A DNA stretch of 64,000 nt from a virus: positions 3,842-67,841 of IMG/VR virus record IMGVR_UViG_3300032053_000060, one strand, 5' to 3'. Shown here piece by piece: positions 10,901-34,485 of this stretch. Position numbers and translations under genes: made by a program. The number at the start of each line of letters is the position of its first letter. Positions within the stretch are counted from its first letter, which is position 1. Under the pieces are notes generated by a model. It had not been told where the DNA came from. It saw only the letters and a program-made list of their open reading frames with translations, and did no database searches.

Positions 10901-12714
10901 TCAGTATAATTTAATACTCCGTCAACAACCGTGGCTAATAAATTTGAATCTCTATAAACATTATATGCAACTACTTCAAAATTATCCGTCGCCGCATCCC
11001 ATAATAATTGTGCAGACGATGTAGTTAATGTTCCTGCTGATAATGTTGGAGTAGATGGCGCAATTAAATCTGGACCAGCAGTTATACCATTACTTAAAGT
11101 GGAAACATTGTAAAATTTATCAAAAGATTGAATAGTATATGTACCACTTGCTGCGGGATCTAATACTAAGAAATTTGTAGTGCTTTTAGTTCTAACATTT
11201 CCGACTCTTGTTCCATTTCTAAAAATGTAATAACCGTCAACTTTTTCAGCAGATACTGGAGCAGTCCATGATAAGTCTACACCATAACCACTAATAGGTC
11301 TTGATATTAATCCAATTGGTTGGCTTGGAGATGTAATATCTGGAGCGTTGTTAGAAACACTATATTCAAATGCGCCAACGTCTGGGTTGCCTGAACGAAG
11401 TGTGCCATCTAAGTCTATTGTTGGTATACTAGAACCACTTATACCAGCATTAATTAATGTTAAAGCGCCAGAAGTTAAATGTGCATCTCTATATGCTGCG
11501 GAAAAATCATTAGCAAAATTAAATTTTACTAAATTAGTTGCATAATTTCCATCATTATAATTTAAAACATAATTTCCACCGCTGGTAATATTTGATACTG
11601 GAATTGCAAATCCTTCAGCAATATTATTATATACTGTGGTAACACCAGTATTTATAACAACTGTTATTAACGGAATACTTACACTTCCACTTGCGGCACG
11701 AACTACAGTATTATTGATAATTTTACTATTACTAGGTTTTAAGTATATACCATAAGTATGATCTACTGCAACTAAATTATTTTCAATTGTATAATTATAA
11801 ACGGTTGTGGTAGTAGCTGAACCAAATATACCATAAATTCTACTTGTTGGTCCAGTAGCACTAGTCCAATCTGTATTTAAATGTGCTTGTTTTGGATTTG
11901 TAAATGCTATAAGTTCATTATTTCTAATTATTGTGCGCGGATTAGTATTTGTAGAACCTATTCTTAATATATTAGCTTCAATATTTACACCAACACCACT
12001 GCCACCATTTATAGTGGAAAATTTAGAATGCGCGTTCATAACTTTATTGTATTCAAATGTCGAATAATCTGAAGCTAATAATGCACCATAATCAACATAT
12101 CTAGTGCTAAATGCAAAATCTTCAATTGTATTATAACCAACATATGCACTAGTAGAACCAGAATACGAATATATACCACTGTTGTTATATAAATGGTTTC
12201 CAATAAATCTATTTCCGAGTCCGTAATTTTTAATACCAGCAGTCACACCAGCTTCAGCAACCCATGTTGCGTCAGACCATACAGAGGCGTCTTGCGCTCC
12301 ATATACAGTACAATTTTCAATTGTAATATGATTTGAAGGACTTGAAGAATACATGGTTACAGATTTATTTCCAGATAATGCTACTAATGCAAAATCAGAA
12401 TGTCCAGCAGGAGTCGCAGAACGAGTTATTGTAAGACCTTTAAAATTCCAATGATTAGCACCACTTAAAGTTAAACTACGAATAATTGGCGAATGTCCAG
12501 AGACTGGTAATACATATACATCAGCACTAGCATTTAAACTTCCACTATTAACTATAAATGGCGTACCATGATAACCACGTTTTAAATATATTTTATCACC
12601 AGGATTAAATACTTTATTAGCAACAACTAATGCTAAAGTACTCCAAGGTTGACTGTTTGTACCAGGGTTGTTTATATTACCATTAAGTGGATCTACATAA
12701 TAATCTATACCCAT
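1..12714 (-). CDS. Giant (>4,238 aa, 3'-truncated by window) protein: 3 right-handed beta-helix (DUF1565/pectin-lyase-like) domains plus ~30 FN3 repeats; putative virion fibre/depolymerase
   Basis: ATG at 12714 with GAGGGAG RBS and late promoter upstream; starts MGIDYYVDPLNGNINNPGTNSQPWSTL...PGDKIYLKRGYHG. The same frame gave sensible protein at spot checks (9630 FYVNPLIGNINNPG, 6483 YYIDPLIGKDSNDG, 1-60 PLTTYTDINLDNFTTYNYFI). The ORF track reports no terminated ORF in this frame, consistent with no stop codon in the window. Confidence 0.93.
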   Translation of the reverse strand, partial: MGIDYYVDPLNGNINNPGTNSQPWSTLALVVANKVFNPGDKIYLKRGYHGTPFIVNSGSLNASADVYVLPVSGHSPIIRSLTLSGANHWNFKGLTITRSATPAGHSDFALVALSGNKSVTMYSSSPSNHITIENCTVYGAQDASVWSDATWVAEAGVTAGIKNYGLGNRFIGNHLYNNSGIYSYSGSTSAYVGYNTIEDFAFSTRYVDYGALLASDYSTFEYNKVMNAHSKFSTINGGSGVGVNIEANILRIGSTNTNPRTIIRNNELIAFTNPKQAHLNTDWTSATGPTSRIYGIFGSATTTTVYNYTIENNLVAVDHTYGIYLKPSNSKIINNTVVRAASGSVSIPLITVVINTGVTTVYNNIAEGFAIPVSNITSGGNYVLNYNDGNYATNLVKFNFANDFSAAYRDAHLTSGALTLINAGISGSSIPTIDLDGTLRSGNPDVGAFEYSVSNNAPDITSPSQPIGLISRPISGYGVDLSWTAPVSAEKVDGYYIFRNGTRVGNVRTKSTTNFLVLDPAASGTYTIQSFDKFYNVSTLSNGITAGPDLIAPSTPTLSAGTLTTSSAQLLWDAATDNFEVVAYNVYRDSNLLATVVDGVLNYTDTTIVSNSSYNYTLKAKDAYNNLSDASNIVNIITSSSEDLVAPSVPTGLSVSTLSSTSTYITWNASTDNIGGVGLAGYILARNLIEITGSTQNYYTDTGLSENIVYTYKVKSFDLSGNTSAYSTTQTITTGRTLQIPQNFAVINSGPNSISISWDATTDIDSNGSYNIYSSLTSDTSGFSLRLSGIAYNSNDVNDTGLNSGVTYYYKIRALDGLGNISNFSDVSYDTTTDTELPSSPVLSTGTITPTSVNLIWTSSTDNVAVVSYNVYRNSSIITSVTGLSYLNIGLTQNTPYIYNVAAVDSSNNESVYSNSITATTTVPITSDITGPTTPSLSGQVSSSSSISLSWNASTDNVAVSGYNVYRNSFVNPIAFTTGLSYSDTGLIDNTEYVYKVKSKDTSNNESSFSNIITLTTSAGVTTTQTEFYVNPLIGNINNPGTIRQPWNTLADVVNAKTFNPGDRIYLYRGYHGTPYISSGNIAASADVYVLPMPGHTPVIRSLTLRNANRWNFKGLTISRANTPSGHADITGIFNANKAVTTYTGVGNNSSYITIENCTIYGAQDTSSWTDTNWITEAGIGTGIKNYGLGNTFRGNHLYNIGGIESYSGSTSAYIGHNIIEDFAIGTTSTAAVTLQSDYATFEYNKVLNAHTKFATVNSGNNTEGRMLLLGASSTNPISYIKNNEFIAFTNPKQAHLSRAWNAASGPEGRIYGIIPSATGTSAYNVSIENNIIIIDHPYGIYLKTAGTKSRINFNTILRATSGSQSGVQVPIITILSPTYGTSAFNNVAENFVIPVSNMISGGNIALNYNAGDYTTNFANFSYANDYSYARRNAHLTSGALTLLNTGKSSGNLPNTDADGTLRDVPPDVGAYEYTVSNGVPDITSPSQPTGLTVIPISGYGADLSWTSPVSADKVDGYYIFKDSVKVGNVRTKNVTNFLVYNSSVAGTYTIQAFDKYYNTSTLSDAVVVTPDTTPPASPTNLQTSALSQTKVIISWTGSSDGSGSGVIAYALYRNGVNFVNVTPNISGTESYSDTGLLQGTQYTYNIRAIDASNNYSNYSSDSIVTTISDFDSVAPSVPENLTAVTTSISGSYISWNASTDNYGFGVTAYDLYRMDSGGPEYTLISTIPSSSTSYNDSGLSSETHYTYKATAKDQAGNISDFSNISTILTYKLVNSPENLDVSIVSILNNIIYMNWDAPTVGASGVDFYDVYRNINNTQYDYLVTLTSNITEYTDNSPISGSSAYTYGVKSKDISGNVSEFSNLVTIIVPDIGVPSTPSLSATTISPTAVYLNWTNSSDNVAVIDYELVRDISGSNVVTVSNISATSYYDLDGLLLPLTTYNYKVRARDAANNYSNYSNSATVTTPSPIVFPNAPTGLLATLSGSNSTVVTWNAATVNVGGSLVSSYELYRNNFSTAIVNTSGIYYFDTGLLSDSTYTYKVKSVDVINNKSDFSNSSTVNTPLSASPRLTEYYIDPLIGKDSNDGSINSPWKTFAEVVSSQSFQAEDTIYLARGYHGCPDITQQITGGKVLVTPMQGHTPIFGKLRTFGAWNWTIDGITITSKLMPANAFIPTWTSQNAGDGNAAMSQAIILGALANSGKASTNITIQNCTIYGAQNVIERGSGYYPSQKSTMTTLRGTSPSQYGSYWMERIGNGIEVGLAASTTQACTNAKFIGNHLRNYAGFMLDFKGNTTTISGNIIEGATSDAMHVTQNGTVIVNNKIQEMFKVTDSNHNDMIQFRGTVSDIKVQNNELRSLVNPFNPYLPSGIVNYAAWAGNTSITGNYFPYGAPFSDVQGIGGFDGGDRHIITNNIVMVDHPIGIWLEGSDRSLIANNTVIRATSGYYDPHIAGAYSPLCTSSRPPGIRIGKKNSGGSYTGAGSTNCSAFNNISEHFELSTGTSVDGGIGNGGVAMGAGPFTNNYTIDMTSSSQRNKFMFTGNRNWSMVKNLHLKSTAGATVLNVGLTTPSTPILDKEGNIRLNPPDLGAYEQDYTLTETAAPSTAPVITSVIGISAYGVDIQWTASPVQEKVEGYYVYKNLIKVGTVRAKNTTRFFDVMITTPISASYTVKSFNEYFDESPSSAEYLWFKDVTAPSAPVITAATALSKTRSLISFTDSTDNVDVLGYYIYRDGILVNSIPSYGDSSYIDTNLTAGTTYDYYIITTDTYGNISSPSNTVNITTTSDLDTESPTTPTNVTAEAISISSAYLTWTKSIDNINGESGVIGYVIAKNIKNDISLIESTITGSNFGAYTDIGLTPGTTYEYRIKAIDQSFNYSSYSQITSGSTVTLPTIILDPPTDLIAEPINSSEIDLSWTAPAYAVLTYTMFRADGINNITFDIVGRSTGDNSTVTNYVDRMSLVIGNSYTYKIFATDLSGNISDFSNEATAITPDDLAPTLPSISAGTITPSSVQIMWHPSVDNFGVAGYDIYRDNSIITTITGNSYTDVGLTNGTEYTYAIDVFDINGNYSVLSNVLTISTLDNEPPSTPVISVGTITTSSIQVLWDASTDNIAISGYDIYRGTSSIVYIASTTDTSYTNTGLSVGTSYTYRIKAKDISGNATVYSNAITASTLDNVVPSTPVISAGTVTPTSAQISWTASTDNVAVSGYDIYRDTFTTPVTSITGISYTDTTLVPSVTYTYKIKSKDTSNNFSSFSNTVIINTLDNVAPSTPVISAGTINATSVQILWNASTDNTAVSGYDIYRNTFTTPITSIVGTSYTDSSLITTTTYVYKIKSKDTSNNFSVFSNAITATTLDNVVPSTPVISAGTITPATINIHWNASTDNVAVSGYDIYRDTFTTPITSITGTSYTDSGLISTTQYVYKIKSKDTSNNFSVFSNAISSTTLDNIVPSTPVISAGTVSATSVQLLWTASTDNVAVSGYDIYRNTFTTPITSIVGTSYNNIGLTSAITYIYKIKSKDTSNNFSVFSNAITATTLDTVAPTAPSISAGTITPTSANILWTASTDNVSVSGYDIYRDTFTTPVTSIIGTSYTDNSLIANNSYTYKVKAKDTSNNFSNFSNTLSLNTLDTNAPTTPTISAGTISATSAQILWDASTDNTAVSGYSIYRDDFVTPIAFTTNLTYNDITLTNGTAYTYKVKAKDTTFNDSGFSNTLIINTLDTTAPTAPTISFGTISATTIYVNWAASTDNVSVSGYDIYRDTFTTPITSIVGTSYADSGLISTTRYVYKVKSKDTSNNFSVFSNAITATTLDNIAPSTPSISSAMVTATVISIHWTASTDNVAVSGYDIYRDTFTTPITSITGTSFVNFGLTNGTSYTYKVKAKDTSNNFSDFSNTLTLTTLDNEAPTIPTIFAGTTTISSATINWNASTDNVGVSGYYVYRLDLFPTPVGFTTDTTFTDSPLADVTTYVYSVIAIDAAGNNSNYNEISLTTLDNTPPSVPSISAYTITTSSIYLSWNASTDNVAVSGYDIYRDTFTTPITSITGTSFVNFGLTNYTTYTYKVKAKDTSNNFSDFSNTLVQTTLDGVPPSIPSISAGTVTPYDIQILWNASTDTAGVSGYTVYKNNEFQTFTTDTFYNDVALTNGTNYSYKVSSMDIFGNTSDISNILIVRTLDNENPSDPTIYSGSITPSSIQITWDVSIDNVAVSGYDIYRDMVNVASVQSPLTTYTDINLDNFTTYNYFI
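6520..8270 (-). repeat. Block of ~6 FN3 repeats between beta-helix domains 2 and 3
   Basis: Repeats begin DITSPSQP, DTTPPASP, DSVAPSVP, VNSPENL, DIGVPSTP, IVFPNAP; boundaries approximate. Confidence 0.8.
9650..11345 (-). repeat. Block of ~6 FN3 repeats between beta-helix domains 1 and 2
   Basis: Repeats begin DITSPSQP, DLIAPSTP, DLVAPSVP, LQIPQN, DTELPSSP, DITGPTTP; boundaries approximate. Confidence 0.8.
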
Positions 12715-12756
12715 TTTTTCAATCTCCCTCAAAATTTAGTTTCTTATTGATATAGT

Positions 12757-20379: not shown

Positions 20380-23160
20380 TTATGCGAAACTTTCTAATGC
20401 TTCTCCACCAGTCGATTTCTCCGGTTTAGATGTGGTTTCTTTTGATTTTCCGGTAATATCAGTACCACTTTCAGTTTCTGGCGCTGAAGGTTCTTCTGAT
20501 GAACTGTCCATGTCTCCTAAAGATCCACCACTAGATCCACCACTAGATCCACCACTAGATCCACCACTAGATCCTCCTGGAGCAATTTTATTTTTATTTA
20601 ATTTTAACGCTTCTTCATTTTCTAATATTTCGTCAGGCTTAAATTTTAAGAATCTTCGCATTAACCATGTTTTATCAAACATTGGAGTTTGTCCAGCATC
20701 TCCAGGTTCTGTATATGGCATAAATCTTTCGAAATTTTCGGCTCTTTGTGTTAATAATTCCGTTTCAATATAATCTTCAAATATATTATTACTATTAAAC
20801 TTTATATGAAAATCTTTTTCTGTTATGCCATATTCATCAGCATATCCCTTTAATCTTAAATGACTTAGATATATTTGTAAAAATACATTTGCAAATCTAT
20901 TAACAAACTTTTGAACCATTTTATGAAAACGAACCTCTTCTCTAGTTATATCAGAAGTATCTCCTAAGCTAAATCCAGAATCTTGCTCCATTCTAGACAT
21001 TGGAATTCTTAGGGATCTAAATAGATTTTTTTGCATATAAACTATATCGTCAATTTGTCCAAGATTATCTCCACCTGGAAGAGTTTCAATTGATGACCCT
21101 TTACCATCTTGAGATGGAAACCAATAATCCTCAATCATTGCCATAGTATCAACAGTTTGTGATGCTTCACCCGTAGTTGGATCATACGTTTTTCTTTGGC
21201 GATATTTTTTCATTAATCCTTGAACGTAAGCTTCAGCTTTTTGTTTTGGTAATTTGCCTACTTCAATTTTAAATATACGTCTCTCAGGAGCACGACAATT
21301 GTGTACCGGACAAGCATTTACAATGAAATTATGATGTTCAGATTCAACTTCAATATCATAAACTTCACGCTTACCAACTGGGTCTATTGAAATAACATTT
21401 TCAAAATCTTCTAATGGGATTTTTGTTAAAGTTACTGTCCAAGAATCTTTACCAGAAATGACTCTATTTTCAAATTTATGCGATCTTGAAGGTCTATGAG
21501 TTATTTTTCCAGATGATAATCCCAAAGAACACCATAATTCTTTTATATCTTCAATTAATTTTTTATTTGCTAATTGAATAGTTGAAAACCATGTTCCATT
21601 ATTTGTATATCGTTCACATCCATCAGCATCAGATAATCCTTCAATAAATGCCAATTTTATAGAATTTGATGAATTAAAAACCCATTCTGGTATTCTTTTA
21701 TTAGCAAATCCTTTTATATAACCTAAATCTTCAAATATTTTTACAGCTATAGTAGAATTAGTATAATAATTTGTATATTTTCTATTTTTGGATGTTGAAC
21801 GATTACAAACGCCAAAATACTTAGACAATAAGCCACTATATTCTACATTAAGTTCTGGATGTTCACCTTCAGCAAATACTACATTATTTTTTGAAATACT
21901 TCCATCACCTATCAAAAATCCAAATAATTTAGCAAAATCTTCATCTACATATTCTGGAACATTTTTTATTTCTTGAGTTTTAAACGTTAATTCTTTTAAT
22001 TTACAAACTTGTTCACCAAATTGTGTGTTTATTTTAGTTTTTTTAGTTTTTTCTTCAAATTTAGCATTTATAAATTGATGTCGTTTAATTTCTAATTTTC
22101 CAGCTTCTACGTAATCAATTTTTTCAGTTGTAGTATCTTTAACTAATATTGGATGATCTGGAGTACATATCAATTCATTATGTCTAGTTCTTACTTTTAT
22201 AGTTTCTTTTTCTCCACTATTCCACTTATTTGTAACTTTTGTAGGTATTAATATTCCATTATTATAAGAATATACATTATCACCTATATTTAAATCTTTA
22301 ATATATTTGTATCCATTTTCAGTTTTAACTCTAGATTCAGAATCTAAACAAAGTCTATAAATGACAAGAGAATCTTCTAATTGTTTAAGTTTTCTATAAT
22401 CAACTTTCGCATAATCTAAGAATGATCTAACTATTTTAGTTTGTCTATCTGGATAATCATATAATCCAGAATTGGCATAAGCCACCATTTGAGTAGGCAT
22501 AACTAAAATATTTGAAGGACCTTTATGTACGAATTGGTATATATTATCAGATTCTATTTCTTCCCATATAGGATGAGTGAACTCCGGTCTTAATTTTTTT
22601 ATCTTTAAAATTCCTCGATCTTTTGCAGTTTCTGGGTCAACAACCTTTTCAAAGGAAATTTCACCATCAATCATATATTCCATCCACCATTCATTAATAT
22701 ACTTATCAGCTTCCAAAACTTCTTTATATATGTATTTCCATTCTTTATTTAAATTTTTTAATATATTCTCATTTTGCATGAATTTTGGATTTTTTATAAA
22801 TAAATTCATAAAATTTCCATCATCATCAAAGTTTATAGCCTCATCTTCTATTTCGCCTAATGCAAATGAGATTACAGGAAACATTGACATATCACGACGT
22901 GACGATAACATCGAATTTTTATTAGATTCTGTTTTATATATAAATGAATTTAATTGACCAGTCTGTTTTTGAAATTCTGCTGAAGATATAGTAGAAACGT
23001 CGTCCATTTCACTTGCTGCTGGGATATTCGGCTTTCCATACTTATCTTCTTGTCGGTCAAAAACATTAAAATTTCTTTTGTAATGTGTTGCTTGAGCCTG
23101 TTTAGACCAATTATTGCGCTTAACAAAACTATCTATTACTTTAGAAAACATATTTGCCAT
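20380..23160 (-). CDS. gp20: Portal protein (gp20) containing an intein
   Basis: LKQLEDSLVIYRL | CRAPERRIFKIEVGKLPKQKAEAY, MIEDYWFP, IETLPGGDNLGQIDD, ITREEVRFHK. Confidence 0.95.
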   Translation of the reverse strand: MANMFSKVIDSFVKRNNWSKQAQATHYKRNFNVFDRQEDKYGKPNIPAASEMDDVSTISSAEFQKQTGQLNSFIYKTESNKNSMLSSRRDMSMFPVISFALGEIEDEAINFDDDGNFMNLFIKNPKFMQNENILKNLNKEWKYIYKEVLEADKYINEWWMEYMIDGEISFEKVVDPETAKDRGILKIKKLRPEFTHPIWEEIESDNIYQFVHKGPSNILVMPTQMVAYANSGLYDYPDRQTKIVRSFLDYAKVDYRKLKQLEDSLVIYRLCLDSESRVKTENGYKYIKDLNIGDNVYSYNNGILIPTKVTNKWNSGEKETIKVRTRHNELICTPDHPILVKDTTTEKIDYVEAGKLEIKRHQFINAKFEEKTKKTKINTQFGEQVCKLKELTFKTQEIKNVPEYVDEDFAKLFGFLIGDGSISKNNVVFAEGEHPELNVEYSGLLSKYFGVCNRSTSKNRKYTNYYTNSTIAVKIFEDLGYIKGFANKRIPEWVFNSSNSIKLAFIEGLSDADGCERYTNNGTWFSTIQLANKKLIEDIKELWCSLGLSSGKITHRPSRSHKFENRVISGKDSWTVTLTKIPLEDFENVISIDPVGKREVYDIEVESEHHNFIVNACPVHNCRAPERRIFKIEVGKLPKQKAEAYVQGLMKKYRQRKTYDPTTGEASQTVDTMAMIEDYWFPSQDGKGSSIETLPGGDNLGQIDDIVYMQKNLFRSLRIPMSRMEQDSGFSLGDTSDITREEVRFHKMVQKFVNRFANVFLQIYLSHLRLKGYADEYGITEKDFHIKFNSNNIFEDYIETELLTQRAENFERFMPYTEPGDAGQTPMFDKTWLMRRFLKFKPDEILENEEALKLNKNKIAPGGSSGGSSGGSSGGSSGGSLGDMDSSSEEPSAPETESGTDITGKSKETTSKPEKSTGGEALESFA
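20521..20577 (-). repeat. 12-bp tandem repeat (ctagatccacca) encoding GGSS repeats in the portal C-terminal tail
   Basis: agatccacca ctagatccac cactagatcc accactagat ccaccactag atcctcc. Confidence 0.9.
21298..22350 (-). mobile_element. Intein (351 aa) with LAGLIDADG endonuclease in the portal protein
   Basis: Starts CLDSESRV, block B CTPDHPIL, LFGFLIGDGS and FIEGLSDADG motifs, ends VYDIEVESEHHNFIVNACPVHN followed by Cys+1. Confidence 0.95.
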
Positions 23161-25861: not shown

Positions 25862-26242
25862 TTATAATTTTTTATAAATATTTTGAATTTGAGTTTGAAT
25901 ATCTTTTTTATGTTCTTCTGTAAAATACTTGGTTTTTATTAATTTGCGTTGCTCTGAAAAAAAGTATTTATGCCTGCAAGAATTGAAATTAGAATTATCT
26001 AATAAATTATAATATTTTAATAATTCTATTATAGTTTTCTCTATTAGTAAATAATTGTCTTTATTGTTTAATAATAATTTTTCTATTAATATCAATAACG
26101 GTTTCACTTCTATATCTTTATCTTTTAATATTTTTATGAAAGATTTTATATCATTTTCAGTTAATACATTTCCAGAATTTAATTTTTGAGATATATGAAT
26201 ATTATCCAGTTCTTCTTGTATTTTGATTAATATAGAACTCAT
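25862..26242 (-). CDS. Hypothetical protein
   Basis: 126-aa ORF with GAGG RBS; TATAAATA at 26291-26298 and 26297-26304 (minus) upstream. Confidence 0.65.
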   Translation of the reverse strand: MSSILIKIQEELDNIHISQKLNSGNVLTENDIKSFIKILKDKDIEVKPLLILIEKLLLNNKDNYLLIEKTIIELLKYYNLLDNSNFNSCRHKYFFSEQRKLIKTKYFTEEHKKDIQTQIQNIYKKL

Positions 26243-26321
26243 TTCAAAATAATACCTCGTATAATAATTATAACAAGAATATGGTATAATTATTTATATT
26301 TATATATTTTGAAAGGATATT

Positions 26322-26819
26322 ATGAAACTAAATACTAAAGAGCTTTTCGAGAATGAATCTAAAGTCAAGTCTTACTTGGAAAAATATGCAACATATAAGA
26401 CTGCTTTAGAAAAAGAAATAGAGCTTATGAAAGCCAATTTAGAAAAGGATTGTATTAATATAGATGAAACTAATTTAGTAACTGAATGTAATAAATGTGT
26501 ACAATTATACAATAAATATTCAATGATTTATGCAGATAAAAAACCATTTTTAAATAGATTAAATAGAAATTTAGACGAAATTCAAAGTTACTTATTTGAT
26601 TATTATATGTTTAATTATGATAAGAGTACAAAAATGACAGTTTCTTTAGCTGATAAGTATATAAAGTCTCATTGTATGTATAAAGAAATAAGTGAAATTT
26701 ACGAAAATTATTCAAATTATTTACAATTAATAGAAAGAACTTTAGAGTATTGTCGTAACAGGGGTTATGCCGTTAAAAATATAATAGAAATACAAAAAAT
26801 TAAGTTTGGAATGAATTAA
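26322..26819 (+). CDS. uvsY: Recombination mediator UvsY-like
   Basis: EKDCINIDETNL..E, C-terminal NRGYAVKNIIEIQK; adjacent to uvsW. Confidence 0.8.
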   Translation: MKLNTKELFENESKVKSYLEKYATYKTALEKEIELMKANLEKDCINIDETNLVTECNKCVQLYNKYSMIYADKKPFLNRLNRNLDEIQSYLFDYYMFNYDKSTKMTVSLADKYIKSHCMYKEISEIYENYSNYLQLIERTLEYCRNRGYAVKNIIEIQKIKFGMN

Positions 26820-28273
26820 TGTTTGATACTAATTTAGTAAAAATAATAAAAATAGATAACGTTTACGCAAAAATTGTAACAGAACACCCATCTCTACTTA
26901 ATGATGTATCTAATTATTTTACAGTATATGTACAAGGATATAAATTCATGCCTAAATATAAAATGGGCATATGGGATGGAAAATTGCGGTTTATAGAAAG
27001 AGATGGGACTTTTTTAATAGGGTTATTAAACTTGTTATATAAATTTATTAAAAATTATGATATAAAAATAGATTTAGATTTAGATTTAGTAAATAATAAT
27101 GTTGACTTTGAAGATGAATTTAATAATATAACTACTGAGTGGTTAGTGGAAAGTATAACTCCTAGAGATTATCAATTAGAAGGTGCTATAAAAGCTATAA
27201 AATATAAACGAGGAATTTTGGAACATGCGACGGCTGCTGGAAAATCTTTAACTATCGCAATGATATTAAAATATTTAGAATTGTCAAATAAATGTAAAAA
27301 AATGATGATTTTAGTTCCTACTGCTGGATTAGTTGAACAAATGTATTCTGATTTTTTAGAATACGGAATAGAAGAAAAATTATTGGGACGATTTTATGAA
27401 AAAGAGAAAAATATAGACCGATTAATAACTATATCCACATGGCAATCTATGCATGTACATAAAGATTTAATAAATGAATTTGATTGTATTATTACAGATG
27501 AATGTCATACTCAGAGAGCAAATGTTGTAAGATCCGTATTATTAAATTCTGAAAATGCAATCTATAGAATAGGGACTTCTGGAACTGTAGATTTACATAA
27601 ATCGCAAAAATGGCTTATAGAAGGAGTTTTAGGTCCAGTTATACACAATATTCCACCAGCGTTTTTGATTGATAATGGTTATGCATCAGATGTTAAGGTT
27701 AATATTTTGTTTCTTCAACATAAAGAAGCTGATGTTAAAAAATTAAAAGGGATGCCATACCAAGAAGAAAAAACTTGGATACAAACATGTAATATACGAA
27801 ATAAAATTATTAGAAAACTTATTAAAAAACATCAAGAATTGGAGCATAACGTTTTAATTTTATTTGATCATATAGAGCATGGAAATTTTATTAAAGAAAG
27901 TCTAAAAGATTTAGAACAAGATGGGGCGCATATATTTATGGTTACTGGAGAAACCCCAGCTAAAGAGCGCGAACGTATTAGAAAATTTACAAATGAAAAT
28001 AAAAAGGTGATTTTATTAGGTACTTATGGAGTATTATCTACAGGAGTAAATATAAATAGATTAAATGCTCTAATATTTTCAGTTGCAGGAAAATCTATGA
28101 TTAGAATATTACAAAGTATAGGTAGAGGTATGAGATTACATCATGAAAAAAATGGCGTAAGAGTATATGATATATGCGATAGTTTTAAATATTCAGAAAA
28201 ACATTTAAGTGATCGTTTGACTATTTACGATAAGGCAGGTTATAAAGTTGACGTAAATGATATAATACTCTAG
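26819..28273 (+). CDS. uvsW: UvsW DNA helicase
   Basis: GYKFMPKYKMGIWDGK, PRDYQ, TAAGKS, DECH, LQSIGRGMR. Confidence 0.95.
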   Translation: MFDTNLVKIIKIDNVYAKIVTEHPSLLNDVSNYFTVYVQGYKFMPKYKMGIWDGKLRFIERDGTFLIGLLNLLYKFIKNYDIKIDLDLDLVNNNVDFEDEFNNITTEWLVESITPRDYQLEGAIKAIKYKRGILEHATAAGKSLTIAMILKYLELSNKCKKMMILVPTAGLVEQMYSDFLEYGIEEKLLGRFYEKEKNIDRLITISTWQSMHVHKDLINEFDCIITDECHTQRANVVRSVLLNSENAIYRIGTSGTVDLHKSQKWLIEGVLGPVIHNIPPAFLIDNGYASDVKVNILFLQHKEADVKKLKGMPYQEEKTWIQTCNIRNKIIRKLIKKHQELEHNVLILFDHIEHGNFIKESLKDLEQDGAHIFMVTGETPAKERERIRKFTNENKKVILLGTYGVLSTGVNINRLNALIFSVAGKSMIRILQSIGRGMRLHHEKNGVRVYDICDSFKYSEKHLSDRLTIYDKAGYKVDVNDIIL

Positions 28274-28284
28274 GAATAATTAAT

Positions 28285-30135
28285 ATGGCAGTATTTCAAA
28301 ATAGTTCATTATATTCGTTATCCATTATGATAAATGGGGTTAGGAGAAATATACGTCCTGGAGAACAAATTTCTGGACCAGATTCTTTAGCAGCAGTTGT
28401 CGGATTAACTATTATAAACCCTTCAACTAAAACTATTATTCCTAAAGAAAATATAATACAACCTCAAACTATAAATAATATAGCCTCTAAAAATAATTAT
28501 AGACCAGAAATTATTCCAAAGTTTTTAATAAGTGAAAATAGTAAAAGTAATTTTAAATTTATAATAGATGAGGAAATAAAATATTTAGAAAATATAAAAA
28601 ATAAAAATGAAATTCCATCAGTAACATTGGCAGTTTTGACAAAAAATCATTTAGACTTAATAAAAACGTGTTGTGAATCTATTTTTAATAAAGTGCATTA
28701 TAAAAATACAACATTATTAATAATAGATACTGGTTCTACAGATCAATCAGTTTTAGAGTATTATAAATTGTTGAATGACAAATGTATATCTAAAAACTGG
28801 AAATATAAATTTGTACAATTAGATACTTTCCATTATAGTAAAAATTATAATTATGTTATAAAAAACCATATTGATACTGATTACGTTTTATTACAAAATA
28901 ATGATACGACAGCTATTAATGATTATGTTACAGAAATGATGCAAATTGGAATTATGAATAAGGTTGGTTCAGTTGGTTGTAGAATGTTTTATCCAAATGG
29001 TACTATCCAACATGATGGTCAAACTTTTTATAATGGTAATAATAATATAATAAATAGTCCATCACATATAAATTTAAGCAAAACTAAAGAATCTGCCGAT
29101 AAAGATGTTCCTGAAAAAATTTGTCTAGTTGATGGTAATACTGCCGCTGGCGCATTAATGAGAACTAAAGATTATTTGCTTGTAGATGGGCTTGATGAAA
29201 ATTATAAAGATATTTTTCAAGATGTAGATTTAATGGCAAAAATTCCTCATTTTTTAAATAAGTTTAATTACTGCAATAAAAATGCAGAAATTTACCATAT
29301 AGATAATGCTTCTAGAAAAGCCGTAGGTTTAAATAGAGTAAATATTGATTCTGATGTTAAGTATATTGATAGGAAATTTAAAGAAAATAATTTATTATAT
29401 GCAAAATTACCTAAAAAAGTTGATTTTTCTATTATAACTTTAGTTAGGAATTTAGATGACTATAAAGATTTTTTAAATAGTGTAAGAATTCAAAATGGAC
29501 AACATACTATAGAATTAATAGCCATTCCAAATTTTCATAATACGTTTACATCTGCGGCTAAAGGATTAAATTATGCTAAGAGTATATCTTCGGGAGAAAT
29601 ACTAATTTATTGTCATGAAGATATTTTAGTCGGAGAAAACTGGCTAAATACTATTAAAAAACATATTGTAGAACTAACTCAAACCAATGAGCGAATTGGT
29701 GTATTGGGAATGGCTGGTGTTTCAGTGTCTCAAAAACCAATTTTCTTCTTAACTAATGAAAATGGTGATACTGTAAATAATTATGGCGCAAATACTAGGA
29801 TTGAGTGTCCATATTTAGATGAATTATGTTTAATAACTTTAAAAAATTCAAATTTATCATTTAATCATAATATATTTGACGGATTTCATTTTTATGGCGC
29901 AAACTTATGTTTAGATGCAAAATTAAAAAATTGTAAAAACTATTCAATAAATGCTAGTTGTTATCATAAGTCTGATGGTTCTAAAAATTTACGAACTACT
30001 GAAATGTATAATAAATATGCTGCTGATGCTAATAAATTTAATAATTACGCTAAATCTAAAGGGGTATTTAATTGGAGAACCACTACTGCAATGAGTGTTA
30101 ATGGTAATATAACTCTATTTCCAAAGAAACATTAA
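28285..30135 (+). CDS. Glycosyltransferase with two GT2 (GT-A) domains
   Basis: IIDTGSTD, LQNNDT, TIQHDG, FQDVDL; second domain YCHEDI, LDELCL, FDGFHFYGANLCL. Confidence 0.85.
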   Translation: MAVFQNSSLYSLSIMINGVRRNIRPGEQISGPDSLAAVVGLTIINPSTKTIIPKENIIQPQTINNIASKNNYRPEIIPKFLISENSKSNFKFIIDEEIKYLENIKNKNEIPSVTLAVLTKNHLDLIKTCCESIFNKVHYKNTTLLIIDTGSTDQSVLEYYKLLNDKCISKNWKYKFVQLDTFHYSKNYNYVIKNHIDTDYVLLQNNDTTAINDYVTEMMQIGIMNKVGSVGCRMFYPNGTIQHDGQTFYNGNNNIINSPSHINLSKTKESADKDVPEKICLVDGNTAAGALMRTKDYLLVDGLDENYKDIFQDVDLMAKIPHFLNKFNYCNKNAEIYHIDNASRKAVGLNRVNIDSDVKYIDRKFKENNLLYAKLPKKVDFSIITLVRNLDDYKDFLNSVRIQNGQHTIELIAIPNFHNTFTSAAKGLNYAKSISSGEILIYCHEDILVGENWLNTIKKHIVELTQTNERIGVLGMAGVSVSQKPIFFLTNENGDTVNNYGANTRIECPYLDELCLITLKNSNLSFNHNIFDGFHFYGANLCLDAKLKNCKNYSINASCYHKSDGSKNLRTTEMYNKYAADANKFNNYAKSKGVFNWRTTTAMSVNGNITLFPKKH

Positions 30136-30143
30136 AAAAGTAC

Positions 30144-30171
30144 TTGAAATTTTATTTTGATCATATATAAT
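30144..30171 (+). promoter_or_regulatory. sigma70-like promoter TTGAAA-N16-TATAAT pointing into a non-coding region
   Basis: Read directly; no ORF of 60 aa or more downstream before the convergent gene. Confidence 0.65.
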
Positions 30172-30177
30172 ATAAAT

Positions 30178-30650
30178 GTCACTATGACGTGTCGGTATTC
30201 TAAACAGTTTTTTTCCGACTATAAAAAAAAATAAAGAAGATTTGTTGATGTATATGTAAGTTGAATTTATTCTATAAACTTACATAGGTTCTTAAATAAA
30301 CTGGAGTAGCCTGATTATAGACTATTTTTTCGTTTAGGTAAAGAACAAGGTATGCTAAACATTAATATTTAATTATATTGATGTTGAATCGAGCACTTAA
30401 CCCTTTAGTGTGGCCAAATTTGTCTGCGATGCACAAGAATACGGATTATCTTCTTATTCGTTAAGAGAAAATAACATAAAGAAGTGCTAGTAAGTTATAT
30501 TATTAACTTAAAAAGCGTTATAAGGAAAAAAAATTACCTGATGTAAGGTTATTAAATTATTGTTTATAATAATATTTTAAAATAAATAATAAAGTTAATG
30601 GTAAACGAAGTGAACCATTCTGTAATGAAACGAAGTGAAATGAAAGATTT
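30178..30650 (+). ncRNA. Candidate large structured ncRNA or transcription-primed replication origin
   Basis: At least 8 stems including long-range pairs and a G-U wobble; two AAACGAAGTGAA copies (30603-30614, 30628-30639). Confidence 0.5.
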
Positions 30651-30666
30651 TAATAAACATATAAAC

Positions 30667-31278
30667 TTAGTATGTTTTTAAAAAATTATTTTTAACTTTT
30701 GGTGCCCCTAAATTTCTTCTAGCTACACCACCAACAGCAATGCCTTTGTAAGTACTAGTACTAACATTTCCTAATTTATATTTACCTAATAAAAATTTAG
30801 ACCATTCTTCATCTAATTTTTCTAATTCGTTTATATCATTAAAATATATAGGAACTTCAAAGGATTTCAATTCTTTAAAATAATTATTTAAAGAAATTTT
30901 ATCTTCATTTGTTAATAATCCATCTTTAGAAATTATAATTTTATGGTTTCCTGGTTTATTTCCAATTTTTAATGGTAATTTGTCTGCATCTGGTTTTATT
31001 CTTACAATTCCACTAATTAATAAGTTTTTATCATTAATAGATGTTGACAATGGTAATATACAATCCCAATACATGTTATCAGCCATATTTGTATAACCTA
31101 TAATTTCTCCATAATCGAAAGGATTAAGTTCACTACTACCCCATTTATAAATAGTCTTTTTTAAATATTCAAGTCTAATTGGTAAAGGGGTTTGTATTCC
31201 AAGTTTAACTATATCACTCAATGAATAATTTTTTTTAACAGATTCGTATAATAATGATAAAAATTTAGCTGGGTTCAT
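30667..31278 (-). CDS. Late protein with an inorganic-pyrophosphatase-like motif
   Basis: PFDYGEIIGYTNMADNMYWDCI resembles the PPase P-x-NYG-x-I...DGDPLD motif; TATAAATA at 31297-31304; ATG 31278 preferred over TTG 31290. Confidence 0.5.
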   Translation of the reverse strand: MNPAKFLSLLYESVKKNYSLSDIVKLGIQTPLPIRLEYLKKTIYKWGSSELNPFDYGEIIGYTNMADNMYWDCILPLSTSINDKNLLISGIVRIKPDADKLPLKIGNKPGNHKIIISKDGLLTNEDKISLNNYFKELKSFEVPIYFNDINELEKLDEEWSKFLLGKYKLGNVSTSTYKGIAVGGVARRNLGAPKVKNNFLKTY

Positions 31279-31314
31279 AATATCTTCCAATAATAGTATT
31301 TATATTTTTATATC

Positions 31315-31342
31315 TTGATTATTATTATTATTAAGATATAAT
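31315..31342 (+). promoter_or_regulatory. sigma70-like promoter TTGATT-N16-TATAAT for nrdA
   Basis: Read directly. Confidence 0.6.
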
Positions 31343-31421
31343 TTAAATATATAAACTTTAAAAATAATATTGTTATTGATAAATAACAATCCAGATAAAA
31401 TAAAGATAAGAGGATGCCTAT

Positions 31422-33068
31422 ATGACGGATAATACTATTGATATAAAAATGCCTGTTTTAATAAAGAAACGTTCTGGTAAAAACGAAAAGTTGGATATTA
31501 ATAAAATTCATAAAGTTCTATCATGGGCTACTGAAGGATTAAAGAATGTCTCAGTTTCAGATATTGAAGTAAACGCTAGTTTACAATTAAAGGATGGAAT
31601 TAAAACTTCACAAATTCATAAAGTTTTAATTGAGTCTGCTGTAAGTTTAATATCTGCTAAAACTCCAAATTACCAATTTGTAGCTTCTAGACTTTTAAAT
31701 TATTATATTAGAAAAGAAACTTTTGGGTTATACACTTCAAAAGAGTTACCACATTTAAATAAAATTATAGAAAAAAATGTAAAACTTAAAATTTATGATA
31801 AAGTAATTCTTGAACAATATACTAAATTGGAAATTGATTCTATAAATGATTATATTCATCATGATAGAGATTTTAATTTTGCTTATGCTGGTATACAACA
31901 AATGGTTGATAAATATTTATTAAAAGATCGAATAACTAATATTTTACATGAAACTCCACAATATACTTTTATGGTCATAGCAATGACTGTATTTGGACAT
32001 TACCCAAAAGATACAAGAATTGATTATATCCGAAGACTTTATAATCAAATTTCATTATTTAAAATTAATTTACCAACTCCTATATTATGTGGCATTAGAA
32101 CACCATTGCGACAATATAGTAGTTGTACATTGATTGACATTGGTGATTCATTACCTAGTATATTTTCATCTAACACTGCTGTTGGATATTATACTGCTAA
32201 AAGAGCAGGTATTGGTCTTAATATTGGTCGCGTTAGAGCAATTGGATCTTCAATACGAAATGGTGAAGTTGTTCATACAGGATTAATACCATATTTAAAA
32301 ATGTTAGAAGCTACAACTAAATGTACTACACAAAACGGAGTTCGTGGTGGATCATCGACTACATATTATCCATTTTGGCATTATGAAGTAGAAGAATTAT
32401 TAGTATTAAAAAATAATAAAGGTAATGACGAAAATAGAATTCGTAAAATGGATTATGGAATACAATTATGTAGATTATTTTATAAAAGAGTAAAAAATAA
32501 TGAAGATATTACTCTTTTTAGTCCGTCTGATGTAAATGGGTTATATGATAGCTTTGGAGATAATACTAAATTTGAAGAATTATATTTAAAATATGAAAAA
32601 GATCCGCTTATAAGACATAAAAAAATAAATGCTAGAGATTTATTTTCAAAAATTGCACAAGAAAGAATTGAAACTGGAAGAATTTATATTATGAATATAG
32701 ATCATACTAATGAACATAGTTCATTTAAAGATCATATAAGTATGTCTAACTTATGCGTTGTTGGTGATACTAAAATTGATATAAAAATTAATGAAATAAC
32801 CCAAATTACTACCATTGAAGAATTATTTAAAACGTATAATAAAAATGATGATATAAAAATAATGAGTATGGCATTAAATAATGAAAAACAATATTCAAAT
32901 TTAGATAATGTATTTAAAACTGGTGAAACAGACGAATTAATAGAAATAACAGATGAAAAAACAGGTAAAAAATTAACATGTACATTAGAACATAAAATAT
33001 ATACTAAAAATAGAGGTTATGTTGAAGCTAAACATTTAAATGAAGATGATGAATTATGTATTTTTTAA
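31422..33068 (+). CDS. nrdA: Class Ia ribonucleotide reductase alpha, N-terminal fragment fused to the N-half of a split intein
   Basis: ATP-cone (KKRSGKNEKLDINKIHKVL), PTPI, SSCTLI, QNGVRGG, ETGRIYIMNID, MSNL | CVVGDT...; stop at 33068. Confidence 0.95.
   Translation: MTDNTIDIKMPVLIKKRSGKNEKLDINKIHKVLSWATEGLKNVSVSDIEVNASLQLKDGIKTSQIHKVLIESAVSLISAKTPNYQFVASRLLNYYIRKETFGLYTSKELPHLNKIIEKNVKLKIYDKVILEQYTKLEIDSINDYIHHDRDFNFAYAGIQQMVDKYLLKDRITNILHETPQYTFMVIAMTVFGHYPKDTRIDYIRRLYNQISLFKINLPTPILCGIRTPLRQYSSCTLIDIGDSLPSIFSSNTAVGYYTAKRAGIGLNIGRVRAIGSSIRNGEVVHTGLIPYLKMLEATTKCTTQNGVRGGSSTTYYPFWHYEVEELLVLKNNKGNDENRIRKMDYGIQLCRLFYKRVKNNEDITLFSPSDVNGLYDSFGDNTKFEELYLKYEKDPLIRHKKINARDLFSKIAQERIETGRIYIMNIDHTNEHSSFKDHISMSNLCVVGDTKIDIKINEITQITTIEELFKTYNKNDDIKIMSMALNNEKQYSNLDNVFKTGETDELIEITDEKTGKKLTCTLEHKIYTKNRGYVEAKHLNEDDELCIF
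32754..33065 (+). mobile_element. Split intein N-fragment (104 aa)
   Basis: CVVGDTKIDI block A, LTCTLEHKIYTKNRGYVEAKHLNEDDEL block B, then stop codon. Confidence 0.93.
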
Positions 33069-33094: not shown

Positions 33095-33442
33095 ATGTAC
33101 AGTGTTTATAAACATACTTTTAAAGAAACTAATAAATGTTATATTGGTTATACGAAATTTTTAATAATAGAACGATTAAAAAAACATCATACAAATGCAA
33201 TGTCTAATATACAAACAAAGTTTTATAGAGCAATAAGAAAATATGGAATAGAAAGTATTTCTTCTGAGATTTTATTTACAACCGAAGATGAAATATTAGC
33301 AAAACAAAAAGAAATAGAATTTATAAAAATGTATGATTCATTTAAAAAAGGTTATAATATGACATTAGGTGGTGATGGAAAAGCTAATTTTTTAATAAAT
33401 TCAAAACTAAAAAAATCTAACTATATAGAAGGAAGATTATGA
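33095..33442 (+). CDS. Free-standing GIY-YIG endonuclease (catalytic domain only) between the split-intein halves
   Basis: SVYKHT..CYIGYT..RLKKH..FYRAIRKYG..EIEFIK..GYNMTLGG; 115 aa, no NUMOD tail. Confidence 0.88.
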   Translation: MYSVYKHTFKETNKCYIGYTKFLIIERLKKHHTNAMSNIQTKFYRAIRKYGIESISSEILFTTEDEILAKQKEIEFIKMYDSFKKGYNMTLGGDGKANFLINSKLKKSNYIEGRL

Positions 33443-33543
33443 TTAAAATTAAAAGAATAAAAAAAGATATTAATATACCAGTATATGATATTACAGTTAA
33501 AGAAACTTCAAATTTCTTTGCAAATAATATATTAATTCATAAT
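33439..33543 (+). mobile_element. Split intein C-fragment (35 aa)
   Basis: Basic N-terminus MIKIKRIKK, block F VYDITV, block G ILIHN followed by Cys. Confidence 0.93.
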
Positions 33544-34485
33544 TGTACGGAAATAACCTTGCCAACAACTCCAATAAATACTATTGATGATTCTGAAGGC
33601 GAAATAGCGTTATGCGTTTTATCCGCTGTTAATTTAGGACAAATAAATGATTTAGATGACTTAGAAGAGACTTGCGAATTAATAGTTCGTACATTAGATT
33701 TCGTAGTTGAACATCAAGAATACCCAGTTAAATCTGCTGAACATATGAAAAGTCGAAGAAGTATTGGAGTTGGATTTACAAATTTAGCTTATTATCTTGC
33801 TAAAAATAAAGTAGGATATGATAAAACTGGTTATGAATTAATAGATAAAACTGCTGAAGCATTTCAATATTATTTACTTAAAGCATCTGTTAAATTAGCA
33901 AAAGAATTTGGTCCTTGTGCATATTTTAATAAAACGAAATATTCTGATGGAATTCTTCCAATTGACACGTATAATAAAAATGTTGATAAATTTTATAAAA
34001 GAGAATTGACATACGATTGGGAATTATTACGAAAAGATATTATACAATATGGTATTAGAAATTCTACATTATCAACTCAAATGCCATGCGAATCTTCTTC
34101 AGTACTAAATAATTCTACAAATGGCATAGAACCACCAAGAGGTTTGGTATCTACTAAAAAATCTAAGCAAGGGCTTCTAAAACAAGTTGTACCAGAAGCT
34201 AATAAGATTGGGCATTTTTATACTACAGCTTATGAAATGTCTAATGATGGATACTTAGAAATAGTTTCATTAATACAAAAATATTTTGATCAGGCTATGT
34301 CTGTAAACAATTATTATGACTTTACAAAATATGAAGATGGAGAATTGCCATTATCTATTGTTTTAGACAATATTATGTATGCTTATTCGTTGGGAATAAA
34401 AACTTTATATTATGCAAATTCCAATGATGGTAAAACTGACTCAGATAAAGAATCTGATTGCTTAGGTGGCGCTTGTTCGGTATAA
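33439..34485 (+). CDS. nrdA: Split intein C-half fused to the C-terminal fragment of RNR alpha
   Basis: ...VYDITVKETSNFFANNILIHN | CTEITLP, EIALCVLSAVN, MPCESSS..NSTNGIEP, KTLYY, C-terminal CLGGACSV. Confidence 0.95.
   Translation: MIKIKRIKKDINIPVYDITVKETSNFFANNILIHNCTEITLPTTPINTIDDSEGEIALCVLSAVNLGQINDLDDLEETCELIVRTLDFVVEHQEYPVKSAEHMKSRRSIGVGFTNLAYYLAKNKVGYDKTGYELIDKTAEAFQYYLLKASVKLAKEFGPCAYFNKTKYSDGILPIDTYNKNVDKFYKRELTYDWELLRKDIIQYGIRNSTLSTQMPCESSSVLNNSTNGIEPPRGLVSTKKSKQGLLKQVVPEANKIGHFYTTAYEMSNDGYLEIVSLIQKYFDQAMSVNNYYDFTKYEDGELPLSIVLDNIMYAYSLGIKTLYYANSNDGKTDSDKESDCLGGACSV

Follow-up and report, generated by a model that had tools for sequence, protein, structure and literature searches.

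The largest stretch free of open reading frames (ORFs) in a 64,000-nucleotide (nt) piece of viral DNA, positions 3,842 to 67,841 of the IMG/VR record IMGVR_UViG_3300032053_000060 (the whole of which is called the window from here on), contains a promoter followed by a string of hairpins, which together form a unit conserved in a sister phage from ~30144 to ~30575. As judged from the comparison of the two phages, this is a real, selected, ORF-free and hairpin-rich element belonging to no known family, and it is most likely a new, undescribed phage non-coding RNA (ncRNA) gene. More specifically, we think it probable, with some reserve, that the element is a stand-alone, early-transcribed and structured ncRNA gene of ~400 nt on the + strand. 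A first-pass annotation, made from the letters of the window, had singled out the region as a promoter-driven and densely base-paired RNA of ~480 nt. That observation is partly confirmed and its interpretation partly supported by the present analysis; the core idea survives in the form of an RNA that is, by the evidence below, shorter and simpler in fold than had been proposed.

An ORF-free gap opening with a conserved promoter

The gap comprises 531 base pairs (bp; 30136-30666) between two convergent ORFs, 28285-30135 on the + strand and 30667-31290 on the - strand, and is indeed, as had been noticed before, the largest stretch of the window devoid of ORFs of at least 60 amino acids (aa). The longest ORF inside it encodes 28 aa, several others falling between 20 and 28 aa, and its guanine-plus-cytosine (GC) content of 0.25 is at the level of the coding DNA, the other three internal gaps ranging from 0.11 to 0.16. 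The sigma-70-type promoter recognized at its start (30144-30171, + strand; -35 hexamer TTGAAA at 30144-30149, 16-nt spacer, -10 hexamer TATAAT at 30166-30171) matches the consensus at 11 of 12 positions, and the sister contig preserves both hexamers (TTGAAT/TATAAT) while its spacer has diverged. Matches of this quality are common in such AT-rich DNA (15 in the window vs 9.4 in mononucleotide shuffles), and of the ten found on the + strand five immediately precede a + strand ORF or the element. The promoter at 30144-30171 is therefore credible because it is conserved and not because of its score. On the opposite strand a promoter-like site (30342-30314) overlaps an 18-nt stretch that is missing in the sister phage. 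The scan of 29500-31500 retrieved no terminator-like sites on either strand, and the 3' end of the predicted RNA is placed provisionally at the limit of homology. Contigs from four sequencing runs covering 29600-31200 provided near-identical pieces only, the differences within the gap (30490, 30524, 30526 and 30588) being too few for covariation.

Selection on the sequence and on its base pairing

A single homologous element was found, on the sister contig behind the loci L002, L004 and L023, whose helicase and glycosyltransferase are 62% and 64% identical, respectively, to those of the window. The sister element aligns from the promoter to ~30575 (blastn, 67.7% over 427 nt; 253 of 366 aligned bases identical, 69%), and past this point the alignment ends; the 207-aa gene that lies beyond the gap in the window is missing from the sister contig, where a co-directional gene comes next. 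Between the two phages, identity at four-fold degenerate third codon positions drops to 38% in the glycosyltransferase (n = 92) and 48% in the helicase (n = 71), and the first and second codon positions of these two flanking genes are 71-83% identical. Since 69% identity in the element contrasts with 38-48% at the flanking four-fold degenerate sites, the element is, on this measure of divergence, under purifying selection comparable to that on coding positions. Several of the insertions and deletions (indels) that separate the two elements have lengths that are not multiples of three.

For the comparison of hairpins, both sequences were cut at alignment anchors and each piece was folded independently, which recovered the same hairpins in both phages: H1, H2, H3, H4 with its inner hairpin, H5 and H9, and also H8. 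Among 54 pairs registered by hand in nine helices, 35 are identical, two carry one-sided and 16 both-sided changes that maintain pairing, and just one is broken; the helices contain four G-U cells and no A-C cells. The register is set by flanking identity for H2, H3, H4 and H8, which contribute ten of the 16 double changes. An unsupervised check used the stems listed in the first-pass annotation, all of which are present in the window where it had placed them, on a plain MAFFT alignment. Paired cells amounted to 82% vs 37-50% with slid partners and double changes to six vs 0-3, the covariation score being reached by eight and the paired-cell percentage by one of 500 shuffles. In this count H1, H3 and H4 were clean and the long-range stem agcactt/aagtgct failed, although a 5-bp invariant core of it (CACTT/AAGTG) is present in both phages; the tctta/taaga stem (true position 30452-30456/30462-30466) was placed one base off, so that its row is not valid. 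RNAalifold supports H8 and H2.

In a register-free test, neutral evolution of the seven hairpin segments of the window was simulated to the observed divergence, giving 3000 descendants. Their summed minimum free energy (MFE) came to -20.6 +/- 5.3 kcal/mol (lowest value -40.9), and none of the 3000 reached the -43.1 of the real sister; no simulated descendant had more than five of the seven segments as stable as the real ones. Judged by its fate in the sister phage, base pairing in the element is under selection. The earlier claim of a structured non-coding element shaped by selection on RNA structure thus finds support in the compensatory changes and in the neutral simulation, and loses it for the long-range stem and for the last stem it had included.

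Anatomy of the conserved element

All parts described here are read on the + strand unless otherwise stated. The proposed ncRNA body extends from 30178 to 30575, its start being placed ~7 nt past the -10 hexamer and its end at the limit of alignable homology, which reduces the ~480 nt first proposed to a conserved unit of ~400 nt. Instead of the dense, nested multibranch fold that had been envisaged, the parts appear as independent hairpins in a row, only one pair of them being nested. The 5' end is occupied by H1 (30177-30189), a 5-bp hairpin that folds in both phages with invariant pairs, and H2 (30191-30219), which has a 5-bp stem and a conserved 19-nt loop, follows, folding likewise in both phages with one both-sided change from C:G to U:A. 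Beyond an A-rich linker with a purine box comes H3 (30253-30286), in which a 10-bp stem bears a conserved loop of 14 nt; it folds in both phages and carries three both-sided changes in the unsupervised alignment and four in the hand register. H4 (30288-30346) is closed by a 6-bp stem (30288-30293/30341-30346) with two both-sided changes and encloses an inner hairpin (base 30297-30301/30332-30336) with one; 18 nt of its inner part have no counterpart in the sister phage, and it is within them that the gcctga/ttaggt stem of the first reading falls. A conserved linker leads to H5 (30358-30385), an 11-bp hairpin with one G-U pair that is represented at the same place in the sister by a 7-bp hairpin; MAFFT does not bring the two into common columns, so the register was set by hand.

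The most conserved and GC-richest block (30389-30440; GC 0.33-0.34) is mostly unpaired or ambiguously paired and shows long identical runs in both phages, and a 1-nt indel within it excludes a common reading frame. It is followed by H8 (30441-30461), a 6-bp hairpin (ACGGAT/ATTCGT) for which RNAalifold on the unsupervised alignment gives six pairs with two both-sided changes and one one-sided change. H9 (30491-30510) is a 7-bp hairpin, and the sister has a 7-bp hairpin of other sequence at most 2 nt away, the two not being alignable column by column. A conserved 3' block (30531-30563) with identical runs in the alignment contains a weak 4-bp hairpin (30536-30539/30546-30549) and then a U-rich run, which may function as a weak terminator. 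In the element, stems vary between the window and the sister, whereas loops and linkers are conserved, as would be expected of stems that present loops for recognition. The aatggt/accatt stem (30597-30619), formerly counted as part of the RNA, lies beyond the end of sister homology and probably outside the RNA; on the - strand it is a 6-bp hairpin followed by a T-rich run and, as seen by eye, is likely the terminator of the 207-aa gene.

Folding stability against shuffled sequences

The test of folding energy against dinucleotide shuffles, which had been suggested together with the original proposal, came out in favour of the local hairpins and only modestly so for the whole region on the + strand. 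The whole 491-nt region has a z-score of -2.03 on the + strand (three of 100 shuffles as good) and of -3.94 on the - strand (0 of 100). Ranked among 20 genome windows of 400 nt, the candidate is the second lowest on + and the lowest on -, two of the 19 control windows coming near it with z-scores of -1.88 and -2.25. When the local hairpin segments were compared singly with 1000 dinucleotide shuffles, the combined p was 1.7e-5 on the + strand, on which they are also more stable than on the - strand. Neither the domain that the long-range agcactt/aagtgct stem closes (p = 0.29) nor the mini-hairpin of the 3' block at 30531-30563 (p = 0.37) was more stable than shuffles. The long-range stem and the two stems it was thought to enclose find no support from covariation either, H8 covarying in their place. 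The + strand is called because the conserved promoter points into the element, because G-U cells outnumber A-C cells by four to zero and because the hairpins are stabler on this strand.

Known families and rejected candidates

The absence of tRNA, transfer-messenger RNA (tmRNA), RNase P and group I/II intron signatures reported in the first-pass annotation was confirmed, and the Rfam scan that it had proposed left the novelty of the element standing. None of the 4227 models of Rfam 15 (including group I/II introns, RNase P, tmRNA, 6S, riboswitches, GOLLD, ROOL and HEARO) matched the window at gathering scores. When the threshold was relaxed to E values up to 10 over 29900-30900, two weak matches appeared, both inside the glycosyltransferase ORF and none in the gap, and at E values up to 1 the eight related loci searched gave one match, outside the gap. 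ARAGORN found no tRNA or tmRNA in the window or in 10 related loci. A description of the element was not found in the open-access literature, which is no proof of its absence from print.

Several other candidates were tried and rejected. A protein-coding gene or pseudogene is discounted by a longest ORF of 28 aa, by frame-breaking indels and by a best tblastn E value of 0.059 when the gap was searched with all ORFs of at least 50 aa from 13 related loci. A mobile repeat resembling a miniature inverted-repeat transposable element does not fit a sequence that matches only itself in the 67.8-kilobase (kb) record and is touched by none of the 20 listed direct-repeat families. Neither tandem repeats in the window element nor a co-directional ORF after it were detected, whereas a repeat RNA of the type III antitoxin kind would consist of an array of ~35-50-nt repeats behind a promoter and would normally precede a toxin gene. 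The iterons of an origin of the T4 oriE type are absent, Tandem Repeats Finder returning no rows for 30000-30800 and the only repetition being two short copies of an ACGAAGT motif. Finally, a stack of intrinsic terminators was rejected for want of any terminator-like site in 29500-31500, the weak hairpin at 30597-30619 being seen by eye only.

The same slot in related phages

Relatives gathered with helicase and glycosyltransferase alignments yielded 15 loci that continue past the glycosyltransferase stop and represent 11 distinct relatives, as L005, L013 and L014 are identical in the gap, and so are L006, L009 and L015. An ORF-free stretch of 328-731 bp follows the glycosyltransferase in ten of the 11; in L007 it comes after one extra ORF of 175 aa, and the L017 contig breaks off within it. 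A promoter matching at least 10 of 12 consensus positions is located within a few tens of bases of the upstream stop in ten of 11 loci, with the window included and L019 not scanned. By blastn the gaps fall into mutually unrelated groups: the window with L004; L012 with L016 and L007; L010 with L011 and L017; and L005, L006 and L008 each alone.

The element of L012, L016 and L007 is a different, GC-richer one of ~330 nt. Its RNAalifold structure of 57 pairs, which was derived from the same three sequences it was scored on, has 87.6% paired cells vs 36-42% with slid partners and 18 double-change pairs vs 2-5, values reached by none of 500 shuffles; in the L012/L016 subgroup the unit ends, by eye, in a short hairpin and then a T-run before AT-rich DNA. 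The slot of L010, L011 and L017 contains the promoter, two 5' hairpins that covary by eye and then repeat arrays with AGTTACT-containing units of ~45-48 nt (L011 ~4925-5055, L010 ~4930-5075, L017 ~3530-3765), those of L010 and L011 ending in a strong hairpin plus T-run; these repeats could function as iterons at the DNA level or belong to a repeat RNA that acts as a protein sponge or in type III antitoxin style. Downstream of its ORF-free element, L008 has an AT-only tandem array (~5240-5480) with ~9 copies of a ~19-nt unit and then three copies of a ~29-nt unit.

The only k-mer shared across subgroups is ACGAAGT, and the order promoter, hairpin, hairpin, A-run and purine box (e.g. AGAAGA), recognizable by eye in several of them, is unsupported by any statistic. 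The gap had no blastn match among 50,697 phage records, and scans of viral contigs with the 207-aa or the 616-aa protein alone brought up no relatives. A pattern scan of viral contigs for the RNA type of the window returned five stretches, one being the sister contig and four chance occurrences in unrelated coding DNA; a second pattern found the sister contig only, and bacterial and archaeal genome contigs gave none.

Genomic setting and neighbouring genes

The parent record of the window is a viral contig of 67.8 kb, estimated to be 34% complete, with a GC content of ~25%. The proteins encoded in the window include UvsY, a helicase, ribonucleotide reductases, a family-B DNA polymerase and a portal protein (Pfam/PHROG); the polymerase shares only ~28% identity with its counterparts in cultured phages, PA5oct-like jumbo phages giving the best match, and related loci were found on contigs of 262-380 kb. 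From this gene set, the polymerase identity and the size of the relatives' contigs we conclude that the source is an uncultured, deep-branching, T4-type large phage. The 20 data sets in which this region was found are DNA metagenomes from sediment or lake water, with no RNA runs among them, a fact that says nothing about expression.

Upstream of the element, the order UvsY-like gene (26322-26819; Pfam PF11056), helicase (26819-28273) and two-domain glycosyltransferase (28285-30135), within a block at 25862-30135, is kept in all relatives. The element thus sits in a replication/recombination module after UvsY and the helicase, ~4 kb from the transcription strand switch. The glycosyltransferase (+ strand, 616 aa, Pfam PF13712 and PF00535) serves as the upstream synteny anchor; its homologs are present at 36-64% identity in all related loci, and no full-length match to it was found among the 50,697 deposited phage records.

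The convergent 207-aa gene (30667-31290, - strand), whose stop faces the gap, encodes a protein that matches nothing in Pfam or PHROG. Homologs were identified in five other lineages (L005, L006, L008, L012 and L007) and not in L004, the homolog in L012 forming the N-terminal part of a 560-aa protein, and an ESM Atlas search with its model returned weak inorganic-pyrophosphatase-like structural neighbours (template-modelling scores of 0.42-0.59) with no link to RNA. Adjoining the 3' end of this gene, a motif with ACGAAGT occurs in two copies 25 nt apart (30605 and 30630; stretch 30604-30641). It is found at the same place in L005 (~5400-5430) and L008 (~5505-5560), whose gaps are otherwise unrelated, and is absent from the sister contig, which is without the 207-aa gene.

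Farther along, the large subunit of a class I ribonucleotide reductase is encoded in two ORFs, 31422-33068 (PHROG 84 positions 60-497) and 33439-34485 (positions 488-795), between which lies a 115-aa GIY-YIG endonuclease ORF (33095-33442); group I intron models do not match there, and as read from this arrangement the gene is split by a free-standing homing endonuclease. The - strand of window positions 1-12732 is occupied by a giant ORF of at least 4244 aa that runs off the window and contains a 273-nt (91-aa) unit in at least 10-19 copies along with larger repeats of ~3.07 kb. In the 926-aa portal ORF (20380-23160, - strand) the portal profile covers the C-terminal part only, with its best stretch at residues 623-857, and residues ~262-548 give weak PHROG matches to helicases or anaerobic reductases, which suggests an N-terminal extension or an insertion.

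Interpretation and competing explanations

According to the ncRNA reading that we favour, the host sigma-70 RNA polymerase would start at the promoter at 30144-30171 and transcribe the DNA from ~30178 to near 30570, and the RNA would fold into seven or eight separate hairpins (H1, H2, H3, H4 with its inner hairpin, H5, H8 and H9) joined by A-rich linkers and by the GC-richer, highly conserved and largely single-stranded 30389-30440 block. The stems could serve as scaffolds and the conserved loops and linkers as recognition surfaces, and the RNA itself would most likely work in trans, with a protein or a second RNA as its binding partner in the early phase of infection. Such a trans-acting binder is, within the ncRNA reading, the mode of action that we prefer, unproven as it is.

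A number of points weigh against this reading. The search for homologs and covariation already advised in the first-pass annotation brought a single homolog, and the covariation, 16 double changes to one broken pair, therefore depends on two sequences. Six of those 16 double changes lie in H5 and H9, where the register was chosen by hand, since RNAalifold predicted no consensus pairs when these two segments were aligned with MAFFT. Four G-U to zero A-C cells are too few to settle the strand or to tell RNA from single-stranded DNA hairpins. The z-score of the whole region is modest on the + strand (-2.0) and stronger on the - strand (-3.9), and the scan gave no terminator-like site on the + strand. 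L019 has no gap at all, co-directional ORFs standing directly after its glycosyltransferase. A covariance model covering 180 positions of the window-type 5' half (R1) recognized the two sequences it was trained on (207 and 147 bits) and nothing else, with no match below E = 1 in other subgroups and none in four whole related records of 117-332 kb; as far as this search reaches, a single clade-wide RNA family is not supported. The lack of coding capacity, the selection on sequence and on pairing and the conservation of the promoter hexamers come out of the comparison itself; transcription, the exact ends, the + strand as the active one and the mode of action are what we infer.

The main rival, which we nevertheless consider unlikely, sees in the gap a replication-origin region of a T4-type phage, in which the early-promoter transcript would prime or open the adjacent A+T-rich DNA as in oriE/oriF, or would, like ColE1 RNA II, be a folded pre-primer; primer folding or initiator binding would then be the task of the hairpins. 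The position of the element within the replication/recombination module, after UvsY and the helicase and close to the strand switch, speaks for such an origin, and so does the promoter with the first strongly A+T-rich stretch (14% GC, 30500-30599) ~330 nt past the start; in origins of the oriF/oriG type the A+T-rich unwinding element comes directly after the promoter, in a minimal unit of ~100 bp (PMC3016281). In ten of 11 relatives the position is conserved and the sequence is not, and direct-repeat arrays occur in the gaps of L010, L011 and L017 (AGTTACT units) and of L008 (AT-only). There are precedents in T4, where, according to a review, oriE depends on an early promoter and contains 12-nt iterons, and oriF lies at uvsY and consists of a promoter and an unwinding element (PMC3016281). 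However, by the same account ~100 bp suffices for oriF and oriG and R-loop formation is independent of specific sequence, which would leave seven compensated hairpins over ~350 nt unexplained (PMC3016281). Moreover, tandem repeats are absent from the gap of the window, the hairpin and T-run that by eye end the L012/L016 unit before AT-rich DNA would stop a primer short, and in this genome there is AT-rich DNA behind nearly every gene.

A cis-acting or DNA-level buffer between convergent genes, made of terminator or insulator hairpins and protein-binding palindromes without any functional RNA, is a much weaker contender, and we hold it to be very improbable. It would suit the convergent arrangement in the window, the symmetry of the hairpins with a - strand fold at least as unusual as that of the + strand, and the resemblance of 30597-30619 to a terminator for the - strand gene. 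Nonetheless, the sister phage keeps the hairpins in spite of having no convergent gene and a co-directional one next, the hairpins lack U-runs and the terminator scan was empty. Palindromic sites would be expected to conserve their sequence, whereas here the stems change and the loops are conserved, and the G-U pairs exist on the + strand reading only. Least credible of all is a non-functional spacer or decayed gene with the chance hairpins of AT-rich DNA, or as a variant a region encoding one or more very small proteins, for which one could cite the whole-region z-score of just -2.0 on the + strand, the two of 19 controls that come close and the several ORFs of 20-28 aa, but which is at odds with 69% identity where synonymous sites are near saturation, with hairpins kept in none of 3000 neutral simulations, with the lack of any small ORF in common with the sister across the frame-breaking indels or of a protein remnant by tblastn, and, as regards a mobile repeat, with the single copy of the element.

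To return to the ncRNA gene that we favour, a more far-reaching version, rather unlikely in our judgement, is that one large structured RNA, ancient and fast-evolving, occupies the slot throughout this clade of uncultured T4-type jumbo phages, with the window/L004, L012/L016/L007 and L010/L011/L017 types as its diverged forms, and that it is part of a replication and nucleotide-metabolism module. It is a possibility that such an RNA would control or prime origin firing as ColE1 RNA II does, or act as a multi-site decoy for a host or defence protein; to our knowledge, neither an origin-firing folded RNA nor a multi-site decoy has been described for T4-type phages. We also know of few phage ncRNAs besides tRNAs, and of almost none from large uncultured T4-type phages of sediment or soil. 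What makes the element worth attention is that selection on it appears to match in strength the selection on first codon positions, that its stems are repaired by double mutations and that its slot is filled, in nearly every member of the clade, by a promoter and ORF-free DNA. As a trans-acting RNA, if that proves true, it would give a new handle on early host takeover; should it instead belong to an origin, T4-type phages would have in it their first example of a folded origin transcript.

Comparison with known systems

ColE1 RNA II is a promoter-driven ncRNA of several hundred nt whose stem-loops must fold correctly and which lies upstream of its site of action; its plasmid system includes an antisense partner, RNA I, and processing by RNase H. 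Our element differs in having no conserved antisense promoter and shares no sequence or Rfam similarity with it. GOLLD and ROOL are large, ORF-free, structured RNAs of phages and prophages, with complex multi-domain folds and roles that are unknown or newly emerging, whereas the element is a row of simple hairpins in a sequence of 25-28% GC that their Rfam models do not match. The stable RNAs C and D of T4 are small (~120-140 nt), early and of unknown function and are encoded in the tRNA cluster; the window, in contrast, is without tRNA genes and the element is three times longer.

The T4 origins oriE and oriF resemble the element in a promoter-driven non-coding transcript (predicted in our case), in their place beside uvsY-type genes and in A+T-rich DNA downstream, and oriE also in combining an early promoter with direct repeats, which here are found in some relatives only (PMC3016281). 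They are unlike it in that ~100 bp and no conserved RNA fold are described for them, as opposed to hairpins with compensatory change over ~350 nt and no iteron array in the window; how R-loop formation is governed and how oriE works are named in the review as open questions (PMC3016281). Jumbo phage PhiKZ provides a further comparison, since its intergenic ncRNAs were found experimentally by Grad-seq, one example measuring ~100 nt (PMC8545117). The element differs from these in its length of ~400 nt, in being known from comparative sequence analysis alone and in its unrelated T4-type lineage (PMC8545117). The two cases have in common stand-alone non-coding transcripts, predicted in ours, that have no known function and lie between the genes of a very large phage (PMC8545117).

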